The notes beneath the pieces were generated by a model, which saw only the letters and a program-made list of their open reading frames with translations, was not told where the DNA came from and searched no databases. A DNA stretch of 64,000 bases from Dehalococcoidia bacterium (GTDB taxonomy: Bacteria; Chloroflexota; Dehalococcoidia; Bin125), in NCBI GenBank assembly GCA_022825265.1, contig JAJDXE010000006.1, forward strand, positions 20,923 through 84,922, written 5' to 3'. This document shows, in pieces, positions 20,231 to 42,852 of this stretch (the stretch's first letter is position 1; each line of letters starts with the position of its first letter). The position numbers and the translations under genes were made by a program.

Positions 20231-21093
20231 GTTGCCGGCCACTCCGCTCCGGTGATCTCGTTGGTGGCGTCCCAGAGGCGTTCGGCGGCTTGACGATCGG
20301 TGGCCTGTGGTTGCTGCTGGGTGCGGGTGTGGCGGTCGAAGTACTCGCCGGCGTCTGCGCGTCGGGCGGAGTCGGTGACAAGCTCGACGACCGGAGCGGC
20401 GCCCTCCTCGGGACTGCGCAGCAACGGCCGCAGGACGCGAAGACCGGCCCGCATCGGAGCGGGGAAGTTCTGCGCGAAATTGGTCGCCACGACGCCGGGG
20501 TGGACGGAGAAGGCGGCTAACCCGGCGTCGTGCGTGCGTCGATGCAGTTCGTTGGTGAATAGGATGTTGGCCAGCTTGGTCGCGCAATAGGGCCGAATTC
20601 CACCCCAGTAGTGCTCGAAGTTGAGGTCGTCCAGCGGCATCGCCTCGACGCGCTCATAGACGCGCGAGCTGACGTTGACGACTCGGGCATCGTCCGACTC
20701 AAGCAGCTTCGGCAGCAGCAGCGAGGTGAGCAGGACGTGCGAGAAGTGATTCGTCTGCATCATCGTCTCATGGCCGTCGCCGGTGAGCTGTCGGTCGTTG
20801 AGAGTGAGCCCCGCGTTGTTGACCAGGACATCGAGCCGTTCGGTGCGTTCCAGCAGTTCGTCGGCGGCTCGCCGGACGGAGGCAAACGAGGTCAGGTCCA
20901 TTTGCAGCAGTTCGACAGCGATGGAGCCGCTGTCCTTCTGGATCTGCGAGACGGCGGCCTGGCCGCGTTCGGGCGAGCGGGCGGCGGCGAAGACGTGCCA
21001 GCCGCGTCGCGCCAGGTCGGTGGCGGCCGCCTGACCGATGCCGCTGTTGGCTCCGGTGATGAGAACGGTCGGAGGTGTTGAGGGAGCGTTCAT
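20227..21093 (-). CDS. Short-chain dehydrogenase/reductase, retinol-dehydrogenase-like
   Basis: TGANSGIG, LVNNAG, NVSS, YCATK (YxxxK), HPGVV; ATG overlaps hpnA stop. Confidence 0.9.
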   Translation of the reverse strand: MNAPSTPPTVLITGANSGIGQAAATDLARRGWHVFAAARSPERGQAAVSQIQKDSGSIAVELLQMDLTSFASVRRAADELLERTERLDVLVNNAGLTLNDRQLTGDGHETMMQTNHFSHVLLTSLLLPKLLESDDARVVNVSSRVYERVEAMPLDDLNFEHYWGGIRPYCATKLANILFTNELHRRTHDAGLAAFSVHPGVVATNFAQNFPAPMRAGLRVLRPLLRSPEEGAAPVVELVTDSARRADAGEYFDRHTRTQQQPQATDRQAAERLWDATNEITGAEWPAT

Positions 21094-33359: not shown

Positions 33360-34934
33360 GTGTTGGCTGAAATGCCGGACGAAGACTCTGTTCACGATTC
33401 AGATCCCAGAGCCAGCGCTGCGAACGGTACGTCGGGCAGCGCGAGCAGCCGAAGCAAGAAGGGTGGCCCCAGGGCCAAGAAACAACAGCTAACTCGGGCC
33501 GGGCAACCGATCGACCGTCGCCAGCGGCTGCGGATTCCACCCCACCACGTCACCAAGCAGACCCCGCATGACCGCATCCATAACTGGGACGAGGTCTACT
33601 TCGGCTACACCGCAGGCCCCGCGATGTTCGAGGCCCAGCGCTGTATCCAGTGTCCGGCCGCACCCTGTACGCAGGCCTGTCCCGTCAGCAATGACATTCC
33701 GGGCGCCCTCGCCTTCCTGGAGATCGGCAAGCTGGCTGACGCAGCCGCCGTCTTCCGACAGACATCAGAGATGCCTGAACTGTGCGGCCGGCTCTGTCCT
33801 CAAGAGGCCCTCTGCGAGGGCTCCTGCGTGATCGGCAAGAATGCCAAGCCAGTCGCGATTGGCAAGCTCGAGGCATTCCTTGGCGACTGGGACCGAGAAC
33901 AGCGAGGCGGGTTCCCAATCCCGACCCCGGAGATCGAAACGGGCCAACGGGTCGCGATCGTCGGAGCGGGACCGGCCGGCATGGCCGTCGCCGAACAGAT
34001 GCGGGCAGCCGGACACAGTGTGACGGTATTCGAGGCCTGGCCCTCCGCCGGAGGTGTGTTGCGCTACGGAATTCCCAACTTCAAGACTGCCAAGGACATC
34101 GTCGACGAGAAGGTCGAGGCACTGGCAGCGGCCGGCGTGGAGTTCAGATTCGACACCCGGGTCGGAATCGACATCGGCTGGGACGAGCTGTCCCAATGGG
34201 ACGTCGTCTTCCTCGCTCACGGCGCCAGCCTGGGCAAGCGACTTGGGCTAGACGGTGAGCGCTTGGCCCGCGTCTATAGCGCAACGGAGTTCCTCGTTCG
34301 AGCGAACCTCGGCGACGAACTGTTGCCATCGGCGCTACGCAGCGTGCCGGATGTCGGACGCCGGGTCGTGGTAGTCGGCGGCGGCGATACGTCGATGGAC
34401 TGCGTGCGCTCGGCCGTGCGGCTCGGAGCCAAAGAAGTGACCCTGCTCTATCGCCGCACCGAGAACGAGATGGTCGGTCGCGAGGAAGAGCGACGCCATG
34501 CTCGCGAAGAGGGCGTGACGTTCGAATACCTGACCACACCGGTTGGACTGATCAAGCAAGACGGAGCCGTGGTCGGCGTCGAGTGCGTGCGCATGAGCCT
34601 CGGCGAACGCGACGAGAGCGGCCGTCGTCGCCCGCAGCCAATGCCCGGCTCAGAGTTCGTGATCGACTGTGACGCCTTTGTCGTTGCGGTTGGCTACGAC
34701 GTCGGCCGCGACGTTTACGGCGACTCTGGCATCGACGTCAACGACTGGGGCGAGGTCCTTGTCGACGAACACGGACGCACATCGCGACCGGGTGTCTTCG
34801 CAGGCGGCGACAACGTGACCGGCGCCGACCTGGTCGTCACCGCACTGAACAGCGCCCACGCCGCGATCCCGACAATGCTCACCTATCTCGAAGAGTTGCA
34901 AACCGAGCGAGCCCTGGCGATGGCCGCCGGCTAG
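33360..34934 (+). CDS. Stand-alone GltD/NfnB-like NAD(P)H-dependent Fe-S flavoprotein
   Basis: EAQRCIQCPAAPCTQACP, CGRLCPQEALCEGSC, VGAGPAG, YGIPNFK, VGGGDTSMDC, FAGGD; start may be 33363 or 33372. Confidence 0.85.
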   Translation: MLAEMPDEDSVHDSDPRASAANGTSGSASSRSKKGGPRAKKQQLTRAGQPIDRRQRLRIPPHHVTKQTPHDRIHNWDEVYFGYTAGPAMFEAQRCIQCPAAPCTQACPVSNDIPGALAFLEIGKLADAAAVFRQTSEMPELCGRLCPQEALCEGSCVIGKNAKPVAIGKLEAFLGDWDREQRGGFPIPTPEIETGQRVAIVGAGPAGMAVAEQMRAAGHSVTVFEAWPSAGGVLRYGIPNFKTAKDIVDEKVEALAAAGVEFRFDTRVGIDIGWDELSQWDVVFLAHGASLGKRLGLDGERLARVYSATEFLVRANLGDELLPSALRSVPDVGRRVVVVGGGDTSMDCVRSAVRLGAKEVTLLYRRTENEMVGREEERRHAREEGVTFEYLTTPVGLIKQDGAVVGVECVRMSLGERDESGRRRPQPMPGSEFVIDCDAFVVAVGYDVGRDVYGDSGIDVNDWGEVLVDEHGRTSRPGVFAGGDNVTGADLVVTALNSAHAAIPTMLTYLEELQTERALAMAAG

Positions 34935-34972: not shown

Positions 34973-35419
34973 CTACTCAGCAGGGGAGCACCCCGGTGCT
35001 CCGGGAATATCAACCTCGGCAACGATTTCCTCAGCCGCGTTGCGGCAGAGCACGACCTCGGCGTCGCGGTCGTTGCGCGGATTGCTGATCTGGTGGATCG
35101 CGCGCGGCGGGACATAGAGGAAGTCCCCGGTCTCGACCTCGTGTATATGCTCAAGCTGCTCGCCGTAGGACATCACGATCGGCCCCTGCAGGATGTACAT
35201 CGCCGTTTCGCAGTTGACGTGCCAGTGCGGCGTTGAATACATCCCGGGGGGAATCTTCTGCCGAGTCATGAAGACCTCTTCCGAGCCAGACAACTCGCCC
35301 GAGACGCCGAACTGAATAGCCATCCCCGAACGGTGACTCGACCACTCGGCCTGTTGGCCGTTGGTCATGATGATCACGCCGTCGAGCGCTCCGTCGGCTT
35401 CAACCTGTTGATCTGACAT
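34973..35419 (-). CDS. Cupin-domain protein
   Basis: STPHWHVNCETAMYILQG and GDFLYVPPRAIHQISN cupin motifs. Confidence 0.85.
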   Translation of the reverse strand: MSDQQVEADGALDGVIIMTNGQQAEWSSHRSGMAIQFGVSGELSGSEEVFMTRQKIPPGMYSTPHWHVNCETAMYILQGPIVMSYGEQLEHIHEVETGDFLYVPPRAIHQISNPRNDRDAEVVLCRNAAEEIVAEVDIPGAPGCSPAE

Positions 35420-36878: not shown

Positions 36879-37009
36879 TCCTGACCGCCTCTCATTCACT
36901 ATAGGAGCAATACATGCAAATCGGCGGAGGCAACGAGTTTGATTGAATGGCCCGATGATGCGTGGATATACTTGCGGAAGCGCCGTCGTGGAACGCAGAG
37001 GAGTCGGCC

Positions 37010-37507
37010 GTGGCCTACGAAATCGTCGAAACGTGTATCGGCTGCACGGCCTGCACGAACCGCTGTCCGACAAACGCCATCTGGGGCGAGCGCAACACGA
37101 TCCACTACATCGACCCCGCGCTCTGCATCGACTGTGGCGCCTGCGGCGCAGTCTGCCCGGTTGAGTGCATCCTCGACGACGACGGCGACATCTGCCGCAA
37201 GTTCGCCAAGAAGGAATGGCCCAAGGCCGTCGTCGACGCCGACAAGTGCATCGGCTCGGGCTGCGAAATCTGCATCAACGTCTGCCCGTTCGAGGCGTTG
37301 GAACTGGACTTCACCGATGAAGCATCCGATTTCTTCGGTCAGGCCGTCGTAATCGAGAAGAACTGCACTGGCTGCCGCCTCTGCGAACAGTCCTGCGGCT
37401 GGGATGCGGTCCACATCTTCCCGCTGCGCGACGAGCTGAAGAAGCTCCACTACCCCGGAGACAAGCCGACCCCGGGCCAGGAAAAGTTCCTCCGCAGCCG
37501 CGCCTAA
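37010..37507 (+). CDS. Polyferredoxin with four [4Fe-4S] motifs
   Basis: CIGCTACTNRCP, CIDCGACGAVCP, CIGSGCEICINVCP, CTGCRLCEQSCG; GTG 37010 behind AGAGGAG; upstream TTGAAT-N18-TATACT. Confidence 0.88.
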   Translation: MAYEIVETCIGCTACTNRCPTNAIWGERNTIHYIDPALCIDCGACGAVCPVECILDDDGDICRKFAKKEWPKAVVDADKCIGSGCEICINVCPFEALELDFTDEASDFFGQAVVIEKNCTGCRLCEQSCGWDAVHIFPLRDELKKLHYPGDKPTPGQEKFLRSRA

Positions 37508-37531
37508 GCGTACGACCGCCAGTGAGTCCTC

Positions 37532-37605
37532 GTAGGGGCGGCCCACGTGGGCGCCCTTCTGCTATCTGGACGGTTCACGAACAGGGCGGCCACCAGAGCC
37601 GCCCC
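37532..37605. repeat. GTAG-family REPIN-like doublet, degenerate
   Basis: GTAGGGGCGGCCCACGTGGGCGCCC (37532-37556) and inverse-type GGGCGGCCACCAGAGCCGCCCC (37584-37605) between convergent genes. Confidence 0.65.
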
Positions 37606-37633: not shown

Positions 37634-38674
37634 CTACTTGTGGACCCCTTCGAGGAATGAGCGATCCAGCGCAGCCTCGAGGTCGACATCGTTTTCCAGC
37701 GCGCCGTACTCGAGCAGCACGTCGGTCAGCGCTCGGAACTGCTGCTGGGTGAACCAACCGACACCATTGGCTCGGGTCAGATCGCTCAGCGCATTTTCAA
37801 TCTCCGTGTCGAGAATGAAGCGCTCGTGGACTAGATCGGGCGGTGGGTCCTCGGCTAGGAACTTCTCGGTGGATTCGATCGCGGCCGCCGGGTCGTCGAC
37901 GGCGAACTCGAAGGCGCGGACCGTGGCGCGCAGGAAGCGCTCCAGTTTCTCGCGGTTCGTCTCGTCCTCAAGGAATTCCTCGCTGACCAGGTAAACCACG
38001 CCAAGCGTCGGCACGCCGTCGTCCGCGGCCTCAAAGACCGTGATCTCCTGGTTCAGCTTGCGCGTCAGCGTGTCGGGCTCGTTGGAGAGGAAGACCGGGT
38101 AGACCTCAACCTGTTGCTCGACCAGCACGACCGGGTTGAAGCCGACATCGATCATGTTCATGTCGTCGATGGTCAGGCCGTGGGCGGCCAGCATCGCGTG
38201 GAACTCGGCTTGCACGATGCCCTTGAACCCGACATCACGACCGGCGAAGTCGGCCGGTGACTCGATGCCCGACGAGTTGAGCACGGCATAGCCAAAGTCA
38301 CCGCGCTGACCGAAGAGCATCACCGCGACGTACGGCGCGCCGGTGTTGGCGCGAATCTGCAGCATCTCCGACGCCGGCAGCGTGGTGATGTCGATCTCGC
38401 CGGCGAGCAGCAGGTTCTTGTGGGCGCCGGTGAAACCGGCGTGCTGAATATCAACTTCAAGGTTCTCGTCGGCGAAGAAGCCCTGATCCTCGGCCACATA
38501 GACCGCGACGAAGGGCAGGTTGGCCTGGGCCACGAACCCAGCCATGTAGGTCATCGTCAGGACCTCATCTGAGTCATCGCCGGAACAGGCGATGCTCAAG
38601 GACGCTGCCAGGGCAGCGAAGAGCGAGATCGCGATCAGCAATCGTTTGTGAACGGAAACGGACGTCTGCAACAT
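37634..38674 (-). CDS. NMT1/THI5 (ThiY-like) ABC substrate-binding lipoprotein
   Basis: SIAC lipobox; YMAGFVAQANLPFVAVYVAEDQGFF; start moved to ATG 38674 behind AGAGGAG. Confidence 0.85.
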   Translation of the reverse strand: MLQTSVSVHKRLLIAISLFAALAASLSIACSGDDSDEVLTMTYMAGFVAQANLPFVAVYVAEDQGFFADENLEVDIQHAGFTGAHKNLLLAGEIDITTLPASEMLQIRANTGAPYVAVMLFGQRGDFGYAVLNSSGIESPADFAGRDVGFKGIVQAEFHAMLAAHGLTIDDMNMIDVGFNPVVLVEQQVEVYPVFLSNEPDTLTRKLNQEITVFEAADDGVPTLGVVYLVSEEFLEDETNREKLERFLRATVRAFEFAVDDPAAAIESTEKFLAEDPPPDLVHERFILDTEIENALSDLTRANGVGWFTQQQFRALTDVLLEYGALENDVDLEAALDRSFLEGVHK

Positions 38675-38684
38675 GGGCGCAGGG

Positions 38685-38774
38685 CTCCTCTGGCTGGTCG
38701 GACGCCGGGCGCTTTCTCTTGCCGGGCCGGCTAGCCGGAGCCGCTTCCATGGGGTTGCCACGGCGATAGCGACC
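38685..38774 (-). ncRNA. Candidate structured 5' leader (unclassified riboswitch)
   Basis: Predicted +1 coincides with GGUCG, which pairs with CGACC 79 nt later; internal hairpins; GGCUCC anti-SD complementary to GGAGCC. No known family fully matched. Confidence 0.45.
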
Positions 38775-38780
38775 GCCCAC

Positions 38781-38809
38781 AGCGTATGAATCCCACTCGT
38801 ATCGGGCAA
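38781..38809 (-). promoter_or_regulatory. Internal sigma70-type promoter for the binding-protein gene
   Basis: TTGCCC (38809-38804), N17, TACGCT (38786-38781). Confidence 0.6.
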
Positions 38810-38825
38810 CCCGACGACACGCGGT

Positions 38826-39107
38826 CTACGCGGAATCGTTCGGGATCGGACTTGGCTCTCGCAACACCGACGACTTAAACCACCAGCCATCGACCGCGTC
38901 GCGGCGAAACTCGGCGATCAGCCGGTGCTCGCTCCGCACCTTGAGATCAGTGCCCAGGTCGACATCGTCGCCTTCCAACTCGAGCACCAGGCCGTCAGAC
39001 GAGAATTTGATCACCACTGCGTCTGATTCCTGCGGAGCCTGACGCTCGGGCAGGCGGTAATCGGTGCGTTCGCTGTCGTCGGCGGGTGGTTCGGAAGGCG
39101 TTGTCAT
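38826..39107 (-). CDS. Small acidic hypothetical protein within the ABC cluster
   Basis: GGAG SD; 93 aa MTTPSEPP...LIAEFRRDAVDGWWFK; plausible codon usage. Confidence 0.55.
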   Translation of the reverse strand: MTTPSEPPADDSERTDYRLPERQAPQESDAVVIKFSSDGLVLELEGDDVDLGTDLKVRSEHRLIAEFRRDAVDGWWFKSSVLREPSPIPNDSA

Positions 39108-39127: not shown

Positions 39128-39976
39128 TTATGAGGCGGCGACAGGTTGGTCGAGACGCCACGAAAAAAGTCGCTCAGCGACGACCACAGCCGTCGAGAGC
39201 GTCACGCCGATCAGTGTCAGCATCAACACAGCGGCAAAGACCTGCTCCAGCCGCAGGTTGTTCTGTTCAATCCAGATCACCGCGCCCAGTCCGCCTTGTC
39301 CCGACAGGAAGAATTCCGCCACCACAGCCCCAATCAACGACAGTGTGACTGAGATCTTGAGCGAGGCAAACAGATACGGCACCGCCGCCGGCAGCCGTAG
39401 ATGCCTGAAGATCTCCCAAGTCGACGCATCGACCGAGCGGAAGAAATCGTGCATCCGCGGATCGACGTCGCGGAAACCCGCGATCGCATTGATTAGGACC
39501 GGAAAATAAGTGATCAAAGCAGCAATCGCGATCTTCGGGTTCCAGCCATGCCCCATCCAGATGATGAACAGTGGGATCAGCGCCACGACCGGCGTCACCT
39601 TGACCATGATCGCGATCGGCAAGACGGCCCGCTCAAGGACCTGCGAGTGCGCCACCCCAGCCGCCAATAGCGTCGCGGCAGCCGTCCCGATCGCCAGTCC
39701 ACCTAGCGAGACGCCAAGGGTCTTTAGTCCCTCAGAGAAGTAACGCCCAAAATCGGCGAAAAAATTCTCGATCACACCGGTCGGCCGAGGCATGACCCAG
39801 ATCGACACATCGGCAATCCGCACCCACAGCTCAACCGCAATCGCGGCCAGCAACAATGCGACCAGCGGCGGCAGCACCCAGCCAAGCAGCGGACGGATAT
39901 CCGGTGGAGCCATCGGAATCCGACCCGAGGCAGGAGCGTCGAGATGGTCCAAATCGCGGATCGGCTCAGAGATCAT
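39128..39976 (-). CDS. ABC permease, SsuC/ThiX-like
   Basis: KVTPVVALIP, FFRSVDASTWEIFRHLRLPAAVPY (EAA-loop region), VVAEF. Confidence 0.9.
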   Translation of the reverse strand: MISEPIRDLDHLDAPASGRIPMAPPDIRPLLGWVLPPLVALLLAAIAVELWVRIADVSIWVMPRPTGVIENFFADFGRYFSEGLKTLGVSLGGLAIGTAAATLLAAGVAHSQVLERAVLPIAIMVKVTPVVALIPLFIIWMGHGWNPKIAIAALITYFPVLINAIAGFRDVDPRMHDFFRSVDASTWEIFRHLRLPAAVPYLFASLKISVTLSLIGAVVAEFFLSGQGGLGAVIWIEQNNLRLEQVFAAVLMLTLIGVTLSTAVVVAERLFSWRLDQPVAAS

Positions 39977-39983
39977 GTCGGGA

Positions 39984-40865
39984 TCAGGCCGCATCCAGAG
40001 GAACGGCGGGAGTAGTTGGAGACCGCAGTGCCGCGCGCACGATCGCAGTGTCATTGACGAAGCGGTCAGAATGCTCGTGCTCAGGTCGTCTGGGCCGAGA
40101 CGTGGTGATCGGAATATCCGCAATGATCCGGCCCGGTCGCGGCGACATCACCAGCACCCGATCGGCGATCGCCACCGCCTCGGCAACAGAGTGAGTGACG
40201 AACACGGCGGACCGAGGCGGATCGCGGGGATCGTGTGACACGCTCCACAGCCGCTGCAGTTCGTAACGCATCTGCTCGCGGGTGATCTCGTCCAGCGCGG
40301 CAAACGGTTCGTCCATCAGCAACAACGGCGGATCGATCGCCAGCGCGCGGGCCAGCGCTGCTCGTTGTTGCATCCCGCCTGATAGCTCCGCCGGTCGATA
40401 GCGTTCGAACCCGCTCAGACCGACGATTTCGATCAGCTCATGCACGTTGGTTGAGGAGTGCGTCTCGCGAGGATTCAGTTGCAGGCCGAGTCGCACATTG
40501 TCCTCGACGCTGCGCCAGGCGAGCAACGCCGGCTCCTGGAAGACGAGGCCTAGCCGCTTGTGACGCTGAGCCTCCTTCGGCGTCTGACCGAAGACGAACA
40601 CCTCCCCGCTCGACGGAGCCGTCAGTCCGGCGATCACTCGCAAGAGCGACGTCTTGCCGCAGCCCGACGGCCCGACCAGCGCCGTGAACTCACCCGCCCG
40701 GATCGTCAGGCTGGTCCGATCCACCGCCTCAAGCAGAGCGCCCTCCTTGGTCTCATAGGTCAACCTGATGTCGTCAAGCCGCACCGCAGGCTCGGCGTCC
40801 GGCTCGATCGGATGCTTGATGACGAGCGGTGCGGCGGATGGTGGCGTGTCAGTCAGGCTAGTCAC
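39984..40865 (-). CDS. ABC ATP-binding protein, SsuB/ThiZ-like
   Basis: GPSGCGKT, VFQEPALL, LSGGMQQR, LLMDEPF; start approximate. Confidence 0.9.
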   Translation of the reverse strand: MTSLTDTPPSAAPLVIKHPIEPDAEPAVRLDDIRLTYETKEGALLEAVDRTSLTIRAGEFTALVGPSGCGKTSLLRVIAGLTAPSSGEVFVFGQTPKEAQRHKRLGLVFQEPALLAWRSVEDNVRLGLQLNPRETHSSTNVHELIEIVGLSGFERYRPAELSGGMQQRAALARALAIDPPLLLMDEPFAALDEITREQMRYELQRLWSVSHDPRDPPRSAVFVTHSVAEAVAIADRVLVMSPRPGRIIADIPITTSRPRRPEHEHSDRFVNDTAIVRAALRSPTTPAVPLDAA

Positions 40866-40960
40866 GGTGAATCGTAGGGCTGGCGTTAGCCTTGTGGTTG
40901 TGCACCCCACGGTGCGTGTGCGCAGGCAATCCTCAGTTTAGGCATAGATCTGGAGTGGGC

Positions 40961-41626
40961 ATGGCGACCATCGGCTTTATCGGCGGCACGGGACCGGAGG
41001 GGTTGGGACTGGCGATGCGCCTCGCGATGGCGGGCGAACGTGTGCTGATCGGTTCGCGCAGGATCGAACGAGCCGAAGACGCAGCCCAGACCGTCCGCGA
41101 CGCCGTCAACGAAGCCGGCGGAACGCCCGATGCCGGAGGCGGCGTCAACCGCGACGTTGTCGAACAGTCCGACGTCGTGATCATCGTGGTGCCCTTCGAC
41201 GGCCACGAGGCGACCCTCAACGACTTGCGAGACGCGATCGGCAGCAAACTCGTGATCGACGCCGCCGTCCCGCTGACGATGGAAAATCGAGTCCCCGGCA
41301 TTTCCGATGTCGAGCAGGGCTCGGCCACCGAGCAGGCCCAGGCTCTGCTGCCCGACGCCCGCGTCGTGGGCGCGTTCCACAACCTCAGCGCGCGCAAGCT
41401 GCAAAAGCTCTCTGATCCGATGGAAGGCGATGTCCTGATCACCGCTGACGACGCCGACGCCAAGCAGGAAGTGATCGACCTGGTCGGCAAGATGCCCGAC
41501 CTCCGGCCCATCGACGCCGGTCCGCTCTCGATGTCGAAGTTCGTCGAGGACCTGACCGCGCTGATCATCGGCATGAACATGCGTTACAAGACCCAGGCTG
41601 CCGTACGAATGGTGGGAATCGACTGA
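40961..41626 (+). CDS. npdG: F420-dependent NADP oxidoreductase
   Basis: IGFIGGTGPEGLGLAMR, IGSRRIERA, VVGAFHNLSA, IDAGPL; ATG 40961 behind GGAG. Confidence 0.88.
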   Translation: MATIGFIGGTGPEGLGLAMRLAMAGERVLIGSRRIERAEDAAQTVRDAVNEAGGTPDAGGGVNRDVVEQSDVVIIVVPFDGHEATLNDLRDAIGSKLVIDAAVPLTMENRVPGISDVEQGSATEQAQALLPDARVVGAFHNLSARKLQKLSDPMEGDVLITADDADAKQEVIDLVGKMPDLRPIDAGPLSMSKFVEDLTALIIGMNMRYKTQAAVRMVGID

Positions 41627-42387
41627 TGGCACCTCCCTCCGAGTACCGCGTCTTCGCCGTCGGCGGCATTCCCGAGGTCGCCGACGGAGACGATCTGGCC
41701 GAACTGATCCACAACGCCCTGACCGCACAGGAGACGCCGCTCGAAGCCGGCGATGTGCTCCTCGTCACCCAGAAGATCGTCTCCAAGGCGGAGGGCCGGG
41801 TCATCCGGCTCGACGACGTTACCGCCGGCGAGTTCGCTGAGGACTGGGCCCAGGATTGGGAGAAGGACGCCCGCGCGGTCGAGCTCGTACTCCGTGAATC
41901 CAAGCGCATCGTTCGCATGACCCGCGGCCTGATCCTCTCTGAGACCCGCCACGGCTGGGTCTGCGCCAACGCCGGCGTCGATCAATCCAACGTTGGCGGC
42001 GGCGAGGCCGTCGCGCTGCTCCCGATCGACTCGTCTGCCTCCGCCCTGGCGATCCGCACAGGACTCATCGCGCGCGGTCAGATTGATGTCCCCGTGATCG
42101 TCACCGACACCTTCGGCCGCCCCTGGCGCAACGGACTCACCAACGTGGCCATCGGCGTCAGCGGGATGAATCCGATTCGCTCCTACATCGGTGAGGTCGA
42201 TGCCGAGGGCTACGACCTGCGGGTCACGGAAATGGCGCTCGTCGACGAACTGGCCTCGGCAGCCGAACCGGTCATGAACAAGCTCGACAAAGTCCCGGTC
42301 GCCGTCGTCCGCGGCCTGAACGTGCCCGTCGAGGAATACGACCACACCACCCTGGTCCGCCCGCCCGAGATGGACCTGTTCAGATAG
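41626..42387 (+). CDS. cofE: Coenzyme F420-0:L-glutamate ligase
   Basis: GDDLA, TQKIVSKAEG, ANAGVDQSN, TDTFGRPWR, DELASAA. Confidence 0.93.
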   Translation: MAPPSEYRVFAVGGIPEVADGDDLAELIHNALTAQETPLEAGDVLLVTQKIVSKAEGRVIRLDDVTAGEFAEDWAQDWEKDARAVELVLRESKRIVRMTRGLILSETRHGWVCANAGVDQSNVGGGEAVALLPIDSSASALAIRTGLIARGQIDVPVIVTDTFGRPWRNGLTNVAIGVSGMNPIRSYIGEVDAEGYDLRVTEMALVDELASAAEPVMNKLDKVPVAVVRGLNVPVEEYDHTTLVRPPEMDLFR

Positions 42388-42396
42388 GCGCGGTCG

Positions 42397-42852
42397 ATGG
42401 CAGCAGCATTCAACATCGAAGCAGACTTTGAATGCCCGCTCGATCAGCTCTGGTCGTTCGTCTCGCACGTGCCCAACCAGGATCACTGGGTCTTCGGCAT
42501 GTCCGACTCCGAGGTGGTCGGCGGCGGAGAGGTTGGACTGGGCTCCGAGATCGTCGGCACGTCGACTGAACAGGGCAAGTCCCTGCGCGTCACGATGACA
42601 GTCAAGGAATTCGACCCACCCAATCGCGTCTCATGGGAAAACACGGACGGTCACACGCCGTTCGTCACGGTCATCACCTGCTCGGGTGACGACCAGGCCT
42701 CGCGAATGAAGTACGAAGTCACGCTGTACCCGTCCTCCTTGATGATGAAGATCGCGATGGGCCCGCTGCGTCCGCTCGGCAGCATCGTCGCCAATCGGAT
42801 GCTGAGAGATGAAATCGCACACCTCCGTCAGGCGATGGGACTCGAGTCCTGA
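42397..42852 (+). CDS. SRPBCC/polyketide-cyclase-like protein
   Basis: LWSFVSHVPNQDHWV, EFDPPNRVSW; paralog of the next gene. Confidence 0.75.
   Translation: MAAAFNIEADFECPLDQLWSFVSHVPNQDHWVFGMSDSEVVGGGEVGLGSEIVGTSTEQGKSLRVTMTVKEFDPPNRVSWENTDGHTPFVTVITCSGDDQASRMKYEVTLYPSSLMMKIAMGPLRPLGSIVANRMLRDEIAHLRQAMGLES

Follow-up and report, generated by a model that had tools for sequence, protein, structure and literature searches.

The 64,000-nucleotide (nt) stretch analysed here (the window; positions 20,923 to 84,922 of the forward strand of contig JAJDXE010000006.1, GenBank assembly GCA_022825265.1, from a Dehalococcoidia bacterium of the Chloroflexota) carries on its minus strand, at 38774–38675, a leader of about 100 nt between orf111, a small open reading frame (ORF), and a gene coding for an NMT1/ThiY-family substrate-binding protein (SBP). 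The SBP gene is the last gene of an ATP-binding cassette (ABC) transporter cluster, and is the one under the leader's putative control. From comparison with its relatives, we conclude that the leader is a real, new and lineage-specific structured RNA; it was found neither in Rfam 15 nor in the literature searched, and is a candidate for a new lineage-specific class. The best single explanation is that it is a cis-regulatory RNA, most likely a riboswitch, a reading in which we place moderate confidence.

Conservation, transcription and history of the leader

The support for the leader is comparative and does not come from the single sequence. A scan using one genome per species gave 39 orthologous loci, with SBPs of 69–92% protein identity, and further leaders were obtained by protein search and contig look-ups ahead of SBPs of 68–78% identity, giving a total of 43 distinct leaders of four types (I–IV). 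The hosts of the 39 loci are all metagenome-assembled genomes of Dehalococcoidia or Chloroflexota, many with sponge-derived isolate names, and the sequencing runs holding the stretch are sponge or marine metagenomes; the leader is almost unchanged in about 45 sponge-associated Chloroflexota genomes. Over the 39 loci, a 53-nt core has a majority fraction of 0.96 with 31 invariant columns, compared with 0.77 for the last 90 nt of orf111 and 0.69 for the first 90 nt of the SBP gene; the spacers around the promoter hexamers are at 0.45–0.68. The near-invariant block in the alignment of upstream regions reads GGTCGCTATCGCCGTGGCAACCCCAYGGAAGCGGCTCCGGCTAGCCGGCCCGG. The proposal of an earlier sequence-only reading of this DNA, that a structured sense-strand leader RNA with its own promoter precedes an NMT1/THI5-family binding-protein gene, is supported, and the leader is conserved. 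We note that the Logan contigs of two independent runs (X2 and X6) break inside the invariant core, at window 38746–38750, probably through branching of the assembly graph where co-occurring strains share an identical core.

Upstream of the core are −35-like and −10-like hexamers (Table 1), and the distance from the latter to GGTCGC is 6–8 nt in all four leader types. These had been described exactly in the sequence-only reading (TTGCCC at 38809–38804, a 17-nt spacer, TACGCT at 38786–38781, GGTCGC from 38774, GGAGCC at 38688–38683 and the ATG at 38674), and the hairpins and the GGCUCC/GGAGCC complementarity that it quoted are present in the minus-strand sequence. The hexamers were not flagged in a scan for the sigma-70 consensus. 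Transcription would start at or near 38774 from this conserved TTGCC-N17-TAnnCT promoter, the pattern by which the sequence-only reading had placed +1 at about 38774; the start position itself is a prediction. Two other loci argue that the leader heads its own transcript. In one (L063), the promoter, leader and SBP gene are set apart from the operon upstream by an antisense ORF, and in the other (L055, about 2310–2350) there is a GC-rich hairpin with a U-run (CTCCCCCGC-TCT-GCGGGGGAG CGTTTTG) between the orf111 homologue and the leader promoter, which resembles an intrinsic terminator for the preceding operon. No terminator was found within the leader. Two coding interpretations were rejected: an in-frame upstream extension of the SBP gene to 38890 is non-coding, as orthologues carry indels of 1–10 nt there, and a 68-amino-acid (aa) ORF starting at 38780 is excluded by indels of 1, 2, 4–6 and 10 nt in the loop and tail.

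The leader occurs once per locus. A covariance model (R1) finds exactly one copy in each, scoring 70–99 bits, with the next best match in the window at no more than 18.7 bits and no second copy in the window or in the leaderless loci, and a degenerate-pattern scan of metagenome contigs gave only three further copies, all orthologous, and one chance match. In the SBP tree, a leaderless clade (L036, L058 and L065), in which the stop codon of the orf111 homologue overlaps the SBP start, is nested within the leader-bearing clade with support of 95/80, and the leader is kept across about 30% protein divergence. We interpret this distribution as indicating one gain and one loss. In the outgroup the corresponding position is either a 35-nt gap (L059) or is occupied by a divergently inserted gene for an HxlR-family regulator. 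The latter is found in L060 (2032–2466, minus strand) and L062 (2158–2457, minus strand), whose SBPs are 56–60% identical, with the orf111 homologue on one side and the SBP gene on the other, and the arrangement looks like an exchange of a protein and an RNA regulator.

Predicted folds and the ribosome-binding site

The first 36 nt of the transcript would fold into a helix P1 (GGUCGCU/AGCGGCU) around an AUCG junction and a hairpin P2 with a CAACC loop. Pairing statistics were determined on a 37-sequence core alignment with shuffle and slid-partner controls. Three pairs of P2 have seen both partners change (U-A/C-G/U-G; G-U/G-C/A-U/C-G; and G-C/A-U), a number reached by only 2 of 500 shuffles, and sliding the partner strand drops the pairing from 98% to 41–56%. 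Read on the gene tree, double changes in the central P2 pair arose at least four times. In P1, five of the seven pairs vary, each on one side only and none with a double change, and every change in the six inner pairs keeps pairing; the terminal G-U pair is the only one ever lost (in 3 of the 37 sequences). The P1/P2 fold is specific to the mRNA strand because the G-U pairs would be mismatches on the opposite strand. This P1, GGUCGC(U)/(A)GCGGCU, encloses P2 alone and takes the place of the outer GGUCG/CGACC helix that the sequence-only reading had drawn around all of its hairpins. The CGACC partner is not conserved, and the corresponding 3′ side varies freely among orthologues (GAAC, GUCC, GUCA, GCCC, AUG and others).

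The CCGG-rich second half would form a third helical element, most probably a single long hairpin whose tip varies. The second CCGG block is preceded by an invariant G (38731), the spacers between the first three blocks are 3–4 nt and 0–1 nt in all types, and the purine-rich loop has a nearly invariant A and G close to its 3′ end. When folding is constrained to include P1 and P2, a single long hairpin, in which GCCGG (38731–27) pairs with CCGGC (38708–04) and CGG (38737–35) with CCG (38701–699), is thermodynamically preferred in 35 of 43 sequences. It is also favoured by several compensations: type II has A44-U88, and type III G-U, in place of the G44-C88 of type I, the C53/C80 mismatch is U53-A80 in types II and III, and G48-C85 is G48-U85 in type III. 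The long hairpin is the preferred form for types I–III only, and an H-type pseudoknot (blocks 1–3 and 2–4) may form instead. The two small CCGG hairpins proposed earlier are no better supported than the long hairpin overall, and are less well supported for three of the four types.

Segments of the leader are complementary to the Shine-Dalgarno (SD) region, as expected for the translational-switch layout put forward in the sequence-only reading. One is the anti-SD GGCUCC, for which 93.8% of cells are paired with the SD across alignment A1, and L037 carries both G38A and C105U. In type I, GGCUCCGGCU can pair with AGCC-N2-3-GGAGCC, as it does in the lowest-energy fold computed for the window leader (38744–38733 with 38695–38679); the pairing explains why AGCC and the CC following GGAG are conserved around a variable bulge of 2–3 nt. 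GCGGCU (columns 35–40) has two conserved partners, GGUCGC on the 5′ side of P1 and the AGCC upstream of the SD. In type II the latter is lengthened to AGCCGC, and L056 has UGCCGC opposite GCGGCA (an A40-U change). In type IV the anti-SD is the strand of the fourth CCGG block (L056 GAUUCUCCGG with CUGGAGGAUC; L066 CUAUCGC with GCGAUAG, abutting the SD). The aptamer segment that competes for pairing near the SD differs among the four types, and variation of this kind is typical of riboswitch expression platforms.

Predicted ensembles for types I and IV have the SD nearly fully paired (probability unpaired mostly ≤0.02), and all 14 leaders of these types that were examined are less open than 70–99% of shuffled-leader controls (at least 80% for 13 of the 14). 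Enforcing P1 and P2 raises the mean SD accessibility from 0.10 to 0.24, with an increase in 33 of 43 sequences. We read the leader as a translational switch, probably ON once the conserved fold has formed, the direction being a proposal of modest strength. The 3′ strand of P1 and the start of the third element (GCGGCUCCGGCU) could pair instead with AGCC-N2-3-GGAGCC, including the SD, and a putative small-molecule ligand stabilising P1, P2 and P3 would expose the ribosome-binding site and so switch on translation of the SBP.

Several observations weigh against a riboswitch of this design. Folding of the single sequence is no better than that of shuffles (minimum free energy z = −0.22 with the promoter bases and +0.31 from +1), and the P2 covariation is solid for one simple hairpin only, in sequences that are closely related (effective sequence number 2.24). 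The four CCGG blocks are invariant in all types and pair counts cannot choose among their pairings, and type IV misfits the long-hairpin model, conforming better to a small CCGG hairpin or to pairing of block 1 with block 4. Types II and III have no predicted SD occlusion, and in GC-rich RNA alternative complementarities of 5–7 bp are easy to find afterwards. The sequencing runs that contain the stretch are DNA-like, with flat depth across genes, and yield no start sites. Finally, the leader is limited to one gene in one narrow clade, and a dedicated RNA-binding protein would fit this equally well.

Known RNA families and rival explanations

The leader does not correspond to a known RNA class. 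In cmscan searches of Rfam 15, the whole window had no match reaching the gathering score, 38550–38950 (401 nt) had no relevant one at E≤10, and five variant loci carrying the other leader types had none at E≤5; membership of the ZTP, NMT1/xanthine, TPP (thiamine pyrophosphate) or FMN (flavin mononucleotide) classes is thus rejected at relaxed thresholds for the window and four variant types, and kinship with NMT1/xanthine or ZTP, to which the sequence-only reading had seen a partial likeness, is not supported; gene context and taxon also differ. No paper containing the core sequence was found in the literature searched.

The ZTP riboswitch (pfl motif, RF01750) is alike in having P2 within the P1 loop, a conserved J1/2, a second hairpin domain thereafter, and probably in its ON-type logic. 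However, the leader lacks a covariance match and a variable linker, and its conserved nucleotides are different. ZTP riboswitches also require J1/2 to form a pseudoknot, through four G-C pairs, with the loop or tail of P3 (PMC7337938), and none is present or maintained among the leaders. Two candidate pseudoknots were examined and rejected: pairing of J1/2 with the CUAG loop is not maintained, and pairing of CGCC (38765–38762) with GGCG (38706–38703) overlaps both P2 and the fourth CCGG block, with a 3′ side that varies without compensation (GGCA, GGCC, GGUG, GGAC). The genomic context is that of a transporter SBP and not of purine/folate or one-carbon genes; the neighbours encode ABC components, an Fno-like protein, CofE, a ferredoxin and a cupin, with no purine or one-carbon gene association.

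The NMT1/xanthine motif is likewise a short 5′ leader upstream of NMT1/THI5-family binding-protein genes, and also precedes dioxygenase or purine-oxidation genes, but it is a two-stem junction (P1, P2a, P2b) with conserved J1-2a, J2b-2a and J2a-1, found in Proteobacteria (PMC7373994). The consensus fold of the Chloroflexota leader, in which P1 encloses P2 and the CCGG-rich element is separate, is not a two-stem junction; there is no match to the model, and no purine-oxidation genes adjoin. TPP riboswitches on thiXYZ and FMN riboswitches on ribXY control ABC importers with ThiY/RibY-type (NMT1-family) binding proteins. In contrast to these, the leader would act on the SBP gene alone, transcribed from an internal promoter, and neither model matches in the window. 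The kind of evidence is the one behind the orphan riboswitch candidates from comparative genomics (Weinberg et al. 2017; PMC5737381), which likewise have a conserved leader with partial covariation and an association with a single gene. The leader motif is not among these as catalogued in Rfam 15, and is present only in uncultured sponge-associated Dehalococcoidia.

The main rival to a riboswitch is a leader bound by a protein or other trans-acting factor that would stabilise one of the alternative folds, in the manner of ribosomal-protein leaders. The comparative evidence is the same for both, the invariant loops and junctions suit protein recognition equally, and restriction to a narrow clade and a single gene is typical of dedicated protein-RNA pairs; moreover, the distant relatives use a protein regulator of the HxlR family at the leader's position. 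We nonetheless consider this account unlikely. No candidate RNA-binding protein gene travels with the leader, and orf111 persists in lineages that have lost it. Transporter-gene leaders that have been solved are mostly metabolite-binding, which also counts against a protein.

Rather improbable is a constitutive, non-sensing structure, which would act either as a 5′ stem-loop protecting against 5′-end-dependent decay or by fixing SBP translation at a low level. Stability would need stems, but would not call for 31 invariant columns, some of them in unpaired junctions and loops, and the mutually exclusive conserved partners of GCGGCU would be superfluous to a static fold. This is despite P1 beginning at the predicted 5′ end, the SD being predicted as largely paired, and an internal promoter that suggests separate dosage control of the SBP.

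A DNA-level operator, in which the CCGG palindromes (CCGGCTAGCCGG and GCCGG-C-CCGGC) downstream of the start serve a dimeric transcription factor, draws on a perfect 12-bp palindrome and one of 11 bp in type I and on the four invariant CCGG blocks in all types. However, the first 36 nt are not palindromic, and have covariation of the RNA type with G-U pairs, which would be mismatched in DNA or on the other strand. The centre of the palindrome and the spacing of its half-sites also vary by type (CUAG, AUCG, UUG or AAG; spacer of 0 or 1 nt), the fourth CCGG is anywhere from 12 to 29 nt away, and we regard such an operator as very unlikely. Least probable of all, and barely credible, is a diverged member of the ZTP, NMT1/xanthine, TPP or FMN classes: the resemblance of the P1, P2 and second hairpin domain layout to ZTP (PMC7337938) and a downstream gene belonging to the NMT1 motif's namesake family are set against the empty relaxed searches, the unmaintained CGCC/GGCG pairing and the two-stem proteobacterial architecture of the NMT1 motif (PMC7373994).

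Locus, possible ligands and implications

Features of the leader and its locus are listed in Table 1. The SBP start codon (38674–38672) opens a lipoprotein signal peptide (…LSIACSG), and the same start column is kept in orthologues. The closest solved structure to the SBP is that of ThiY, a formylaminopyrimidine (FAMP)-binding protein (3IX1, 2.6e-14), and among NCBIfam models there is only a sub-threshold SsuA-family match.

Table 1. Features of the leader and the surrounding locus, in window coordinates.
Feature	Position	Strand	Remarks
−35-like hexamer TTGCCC	38804–38809	−	Majority fraction 0.91 across orthologues; variable spacers on both sides
−10-like hexamer TACGCT (family pattern TAnnCT)	38781–38786	−	4 of 6 columns invariant; majority fraction 0.89
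P1 5′ strand GGUCGCU	38768–38774	−	RNAalifold, pairs with 38745–38739 (columns 5–11 with 34–40)
J1/2 AUCG, unpaired junction	38764–38767	−	Nearly invariant; columns invariant or ≥90% conserved in alignments A1 and A2
P2 hairpin CCGUGG-CAACC-CCAUGG	38747–38763	−	RNAalifold, columns 16–21 with 27–32; loop CAACC nearly invariant
P1 3′ strand AGCGGCU	38739–38745	−	Alternative pairing with AGCC 38695–38692
Anti-SD GGCUCC	38737–38742	−	Perfect complement of GGAGCC 38688–38683
CCGG blocks 1 (38738–38735), 2 (38730–38727) and 3 (38725–38722)	38722–38738	−	Invariant in A1
Variable purine-rich loop	38710–38721	−	11–28 nt in family; length and sequence vary; indels not multiples of 3
Fourth CCGG block (CCCGGC)	38704–38709	−	3′ strand of preferred helix with GCCGG 38731–38727; RNAalifold
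CCG, proposed P3a partner of CGG 38737–38735	38699–38701	−	RNAalifold; thermodynamics
AGCC, complementary to both GGCU copies (38742–38739 and 38736–38733)	38692–38695	−	Nearly invariant in type I; followed by a variable spacer of 2–3 nt before GGAGCC
SD GGAGCC	38683–38688	−	Majority fraction 0.92; 8 nt upstream of ATG
SBP gene, putatively leader-regulated; NMT1/ThiY-family ABC substrate-binding lipoprotein	37634–38674	−	Pfam NMT1 PF09084, 1.4e-34
orf111, conserved small ORF, part of transporter operon	38826–39107	−	About 93 aa from ATG at 39107; kept in 42 loci
ABC permease gene	39128–40123	−	Pfam BPD_transp_1; synteny kept
ABC ATPase gene	39984–40910	−	Pfam ABC_tran; synteny kept
Fno-like F420_oxidored gene	40892–41626	+	Pfam; divergent from ABC operon
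CofE, F420:glutamyl ligase gene	41626–42387	+	Pfam; abuts Fno-like gene
2x[4Fe-4S] ferredoxin gene	36962–37507	+	Pfam; convergent to SBP gene

The product of orf111 is acidic with an invariant core (DDVDLGTDLKVR…AEFRRDAVDGWW) and has no Pfam or NCBIfam match. Its gene is always between the permease and SBP genes of the ABC system (window and orthologues, L001–L066). An AlphaFold model of the protein is all-beta and poor (pLDDT 54.6), and unfit for structure search. Within its 3′ end the permease gene has a terminator-like hairpin and T-run (GGTCGTCGCTGAGCGACT TTTTT; 39168–39185, minus strand), which shortly precedes the start of orf111. Beyond the cluster, on its downstream side, conserved neighbours include a GltD/PreT-like gene (Fer4_20 and Pyr_redox_2; 33360–34934, plus strand) and a cupin gene (34973–35419, minus strand). 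Three long minus-strand ORFs (36899–37546, 40886–41728 and 41584–42486) are mirror ORFs of the plus-strand ferredoxin, Fno-like and CofE genes; they have wrong-strand tblastn conservation but no family matches, a pitfall in this GC-rich genome.

The genomic context hints weakly at a deazaflavin (FO/F420) or a pyrimidine resembling hydroxymethylpyrimidine (HMP) as the ligand of the proposed riboswitch. The Fno-like gene is divergent next to the transporter operon in every relative sampled whose locus reaches there, with or without the leader; cofE comes after it in the window and, judging from a partial match, also in L054. These neighbours point to FO or F420. The ThiY homology of the SBP points to an HMP- or FAMP-like pyrimidine. 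Context alone, including the presence of flavin binders (RibY) among NMT1-family binding proteins, would allow the leader to be the first riboswitch for a deazaflavin (FO, F420 or an F420-synthesis intermediate), switching on the SBP of an importer for FO/deazaflavin salvage in sponge symbionts, and we hold this to be improbable; no F420 riboswitch was described in the literature searched.

If the riboswitch reading is correct, the leader would represent a new riboswitch class from uncultured, ecologically important sponge-associated Dehalococcoidia. The RNA is short (about 85–100 nt) and testable in vitro, which matters as the hosts cannot be grown. The locus also offers a natural comparison for the swapping of RNA and protein regulators, with the same gene carrying the leader, having lost it in favour of translational coupling, or having an HxlR-family regulator. 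The ligand of the RNA should be the substrate of the importer or a related metabolite, which would give a handle on the cargo of this widespread NMT1/ThiY-type importer, and if it were a deazaflavin, the leader would be the first RNA to sense cofactors of that kind.

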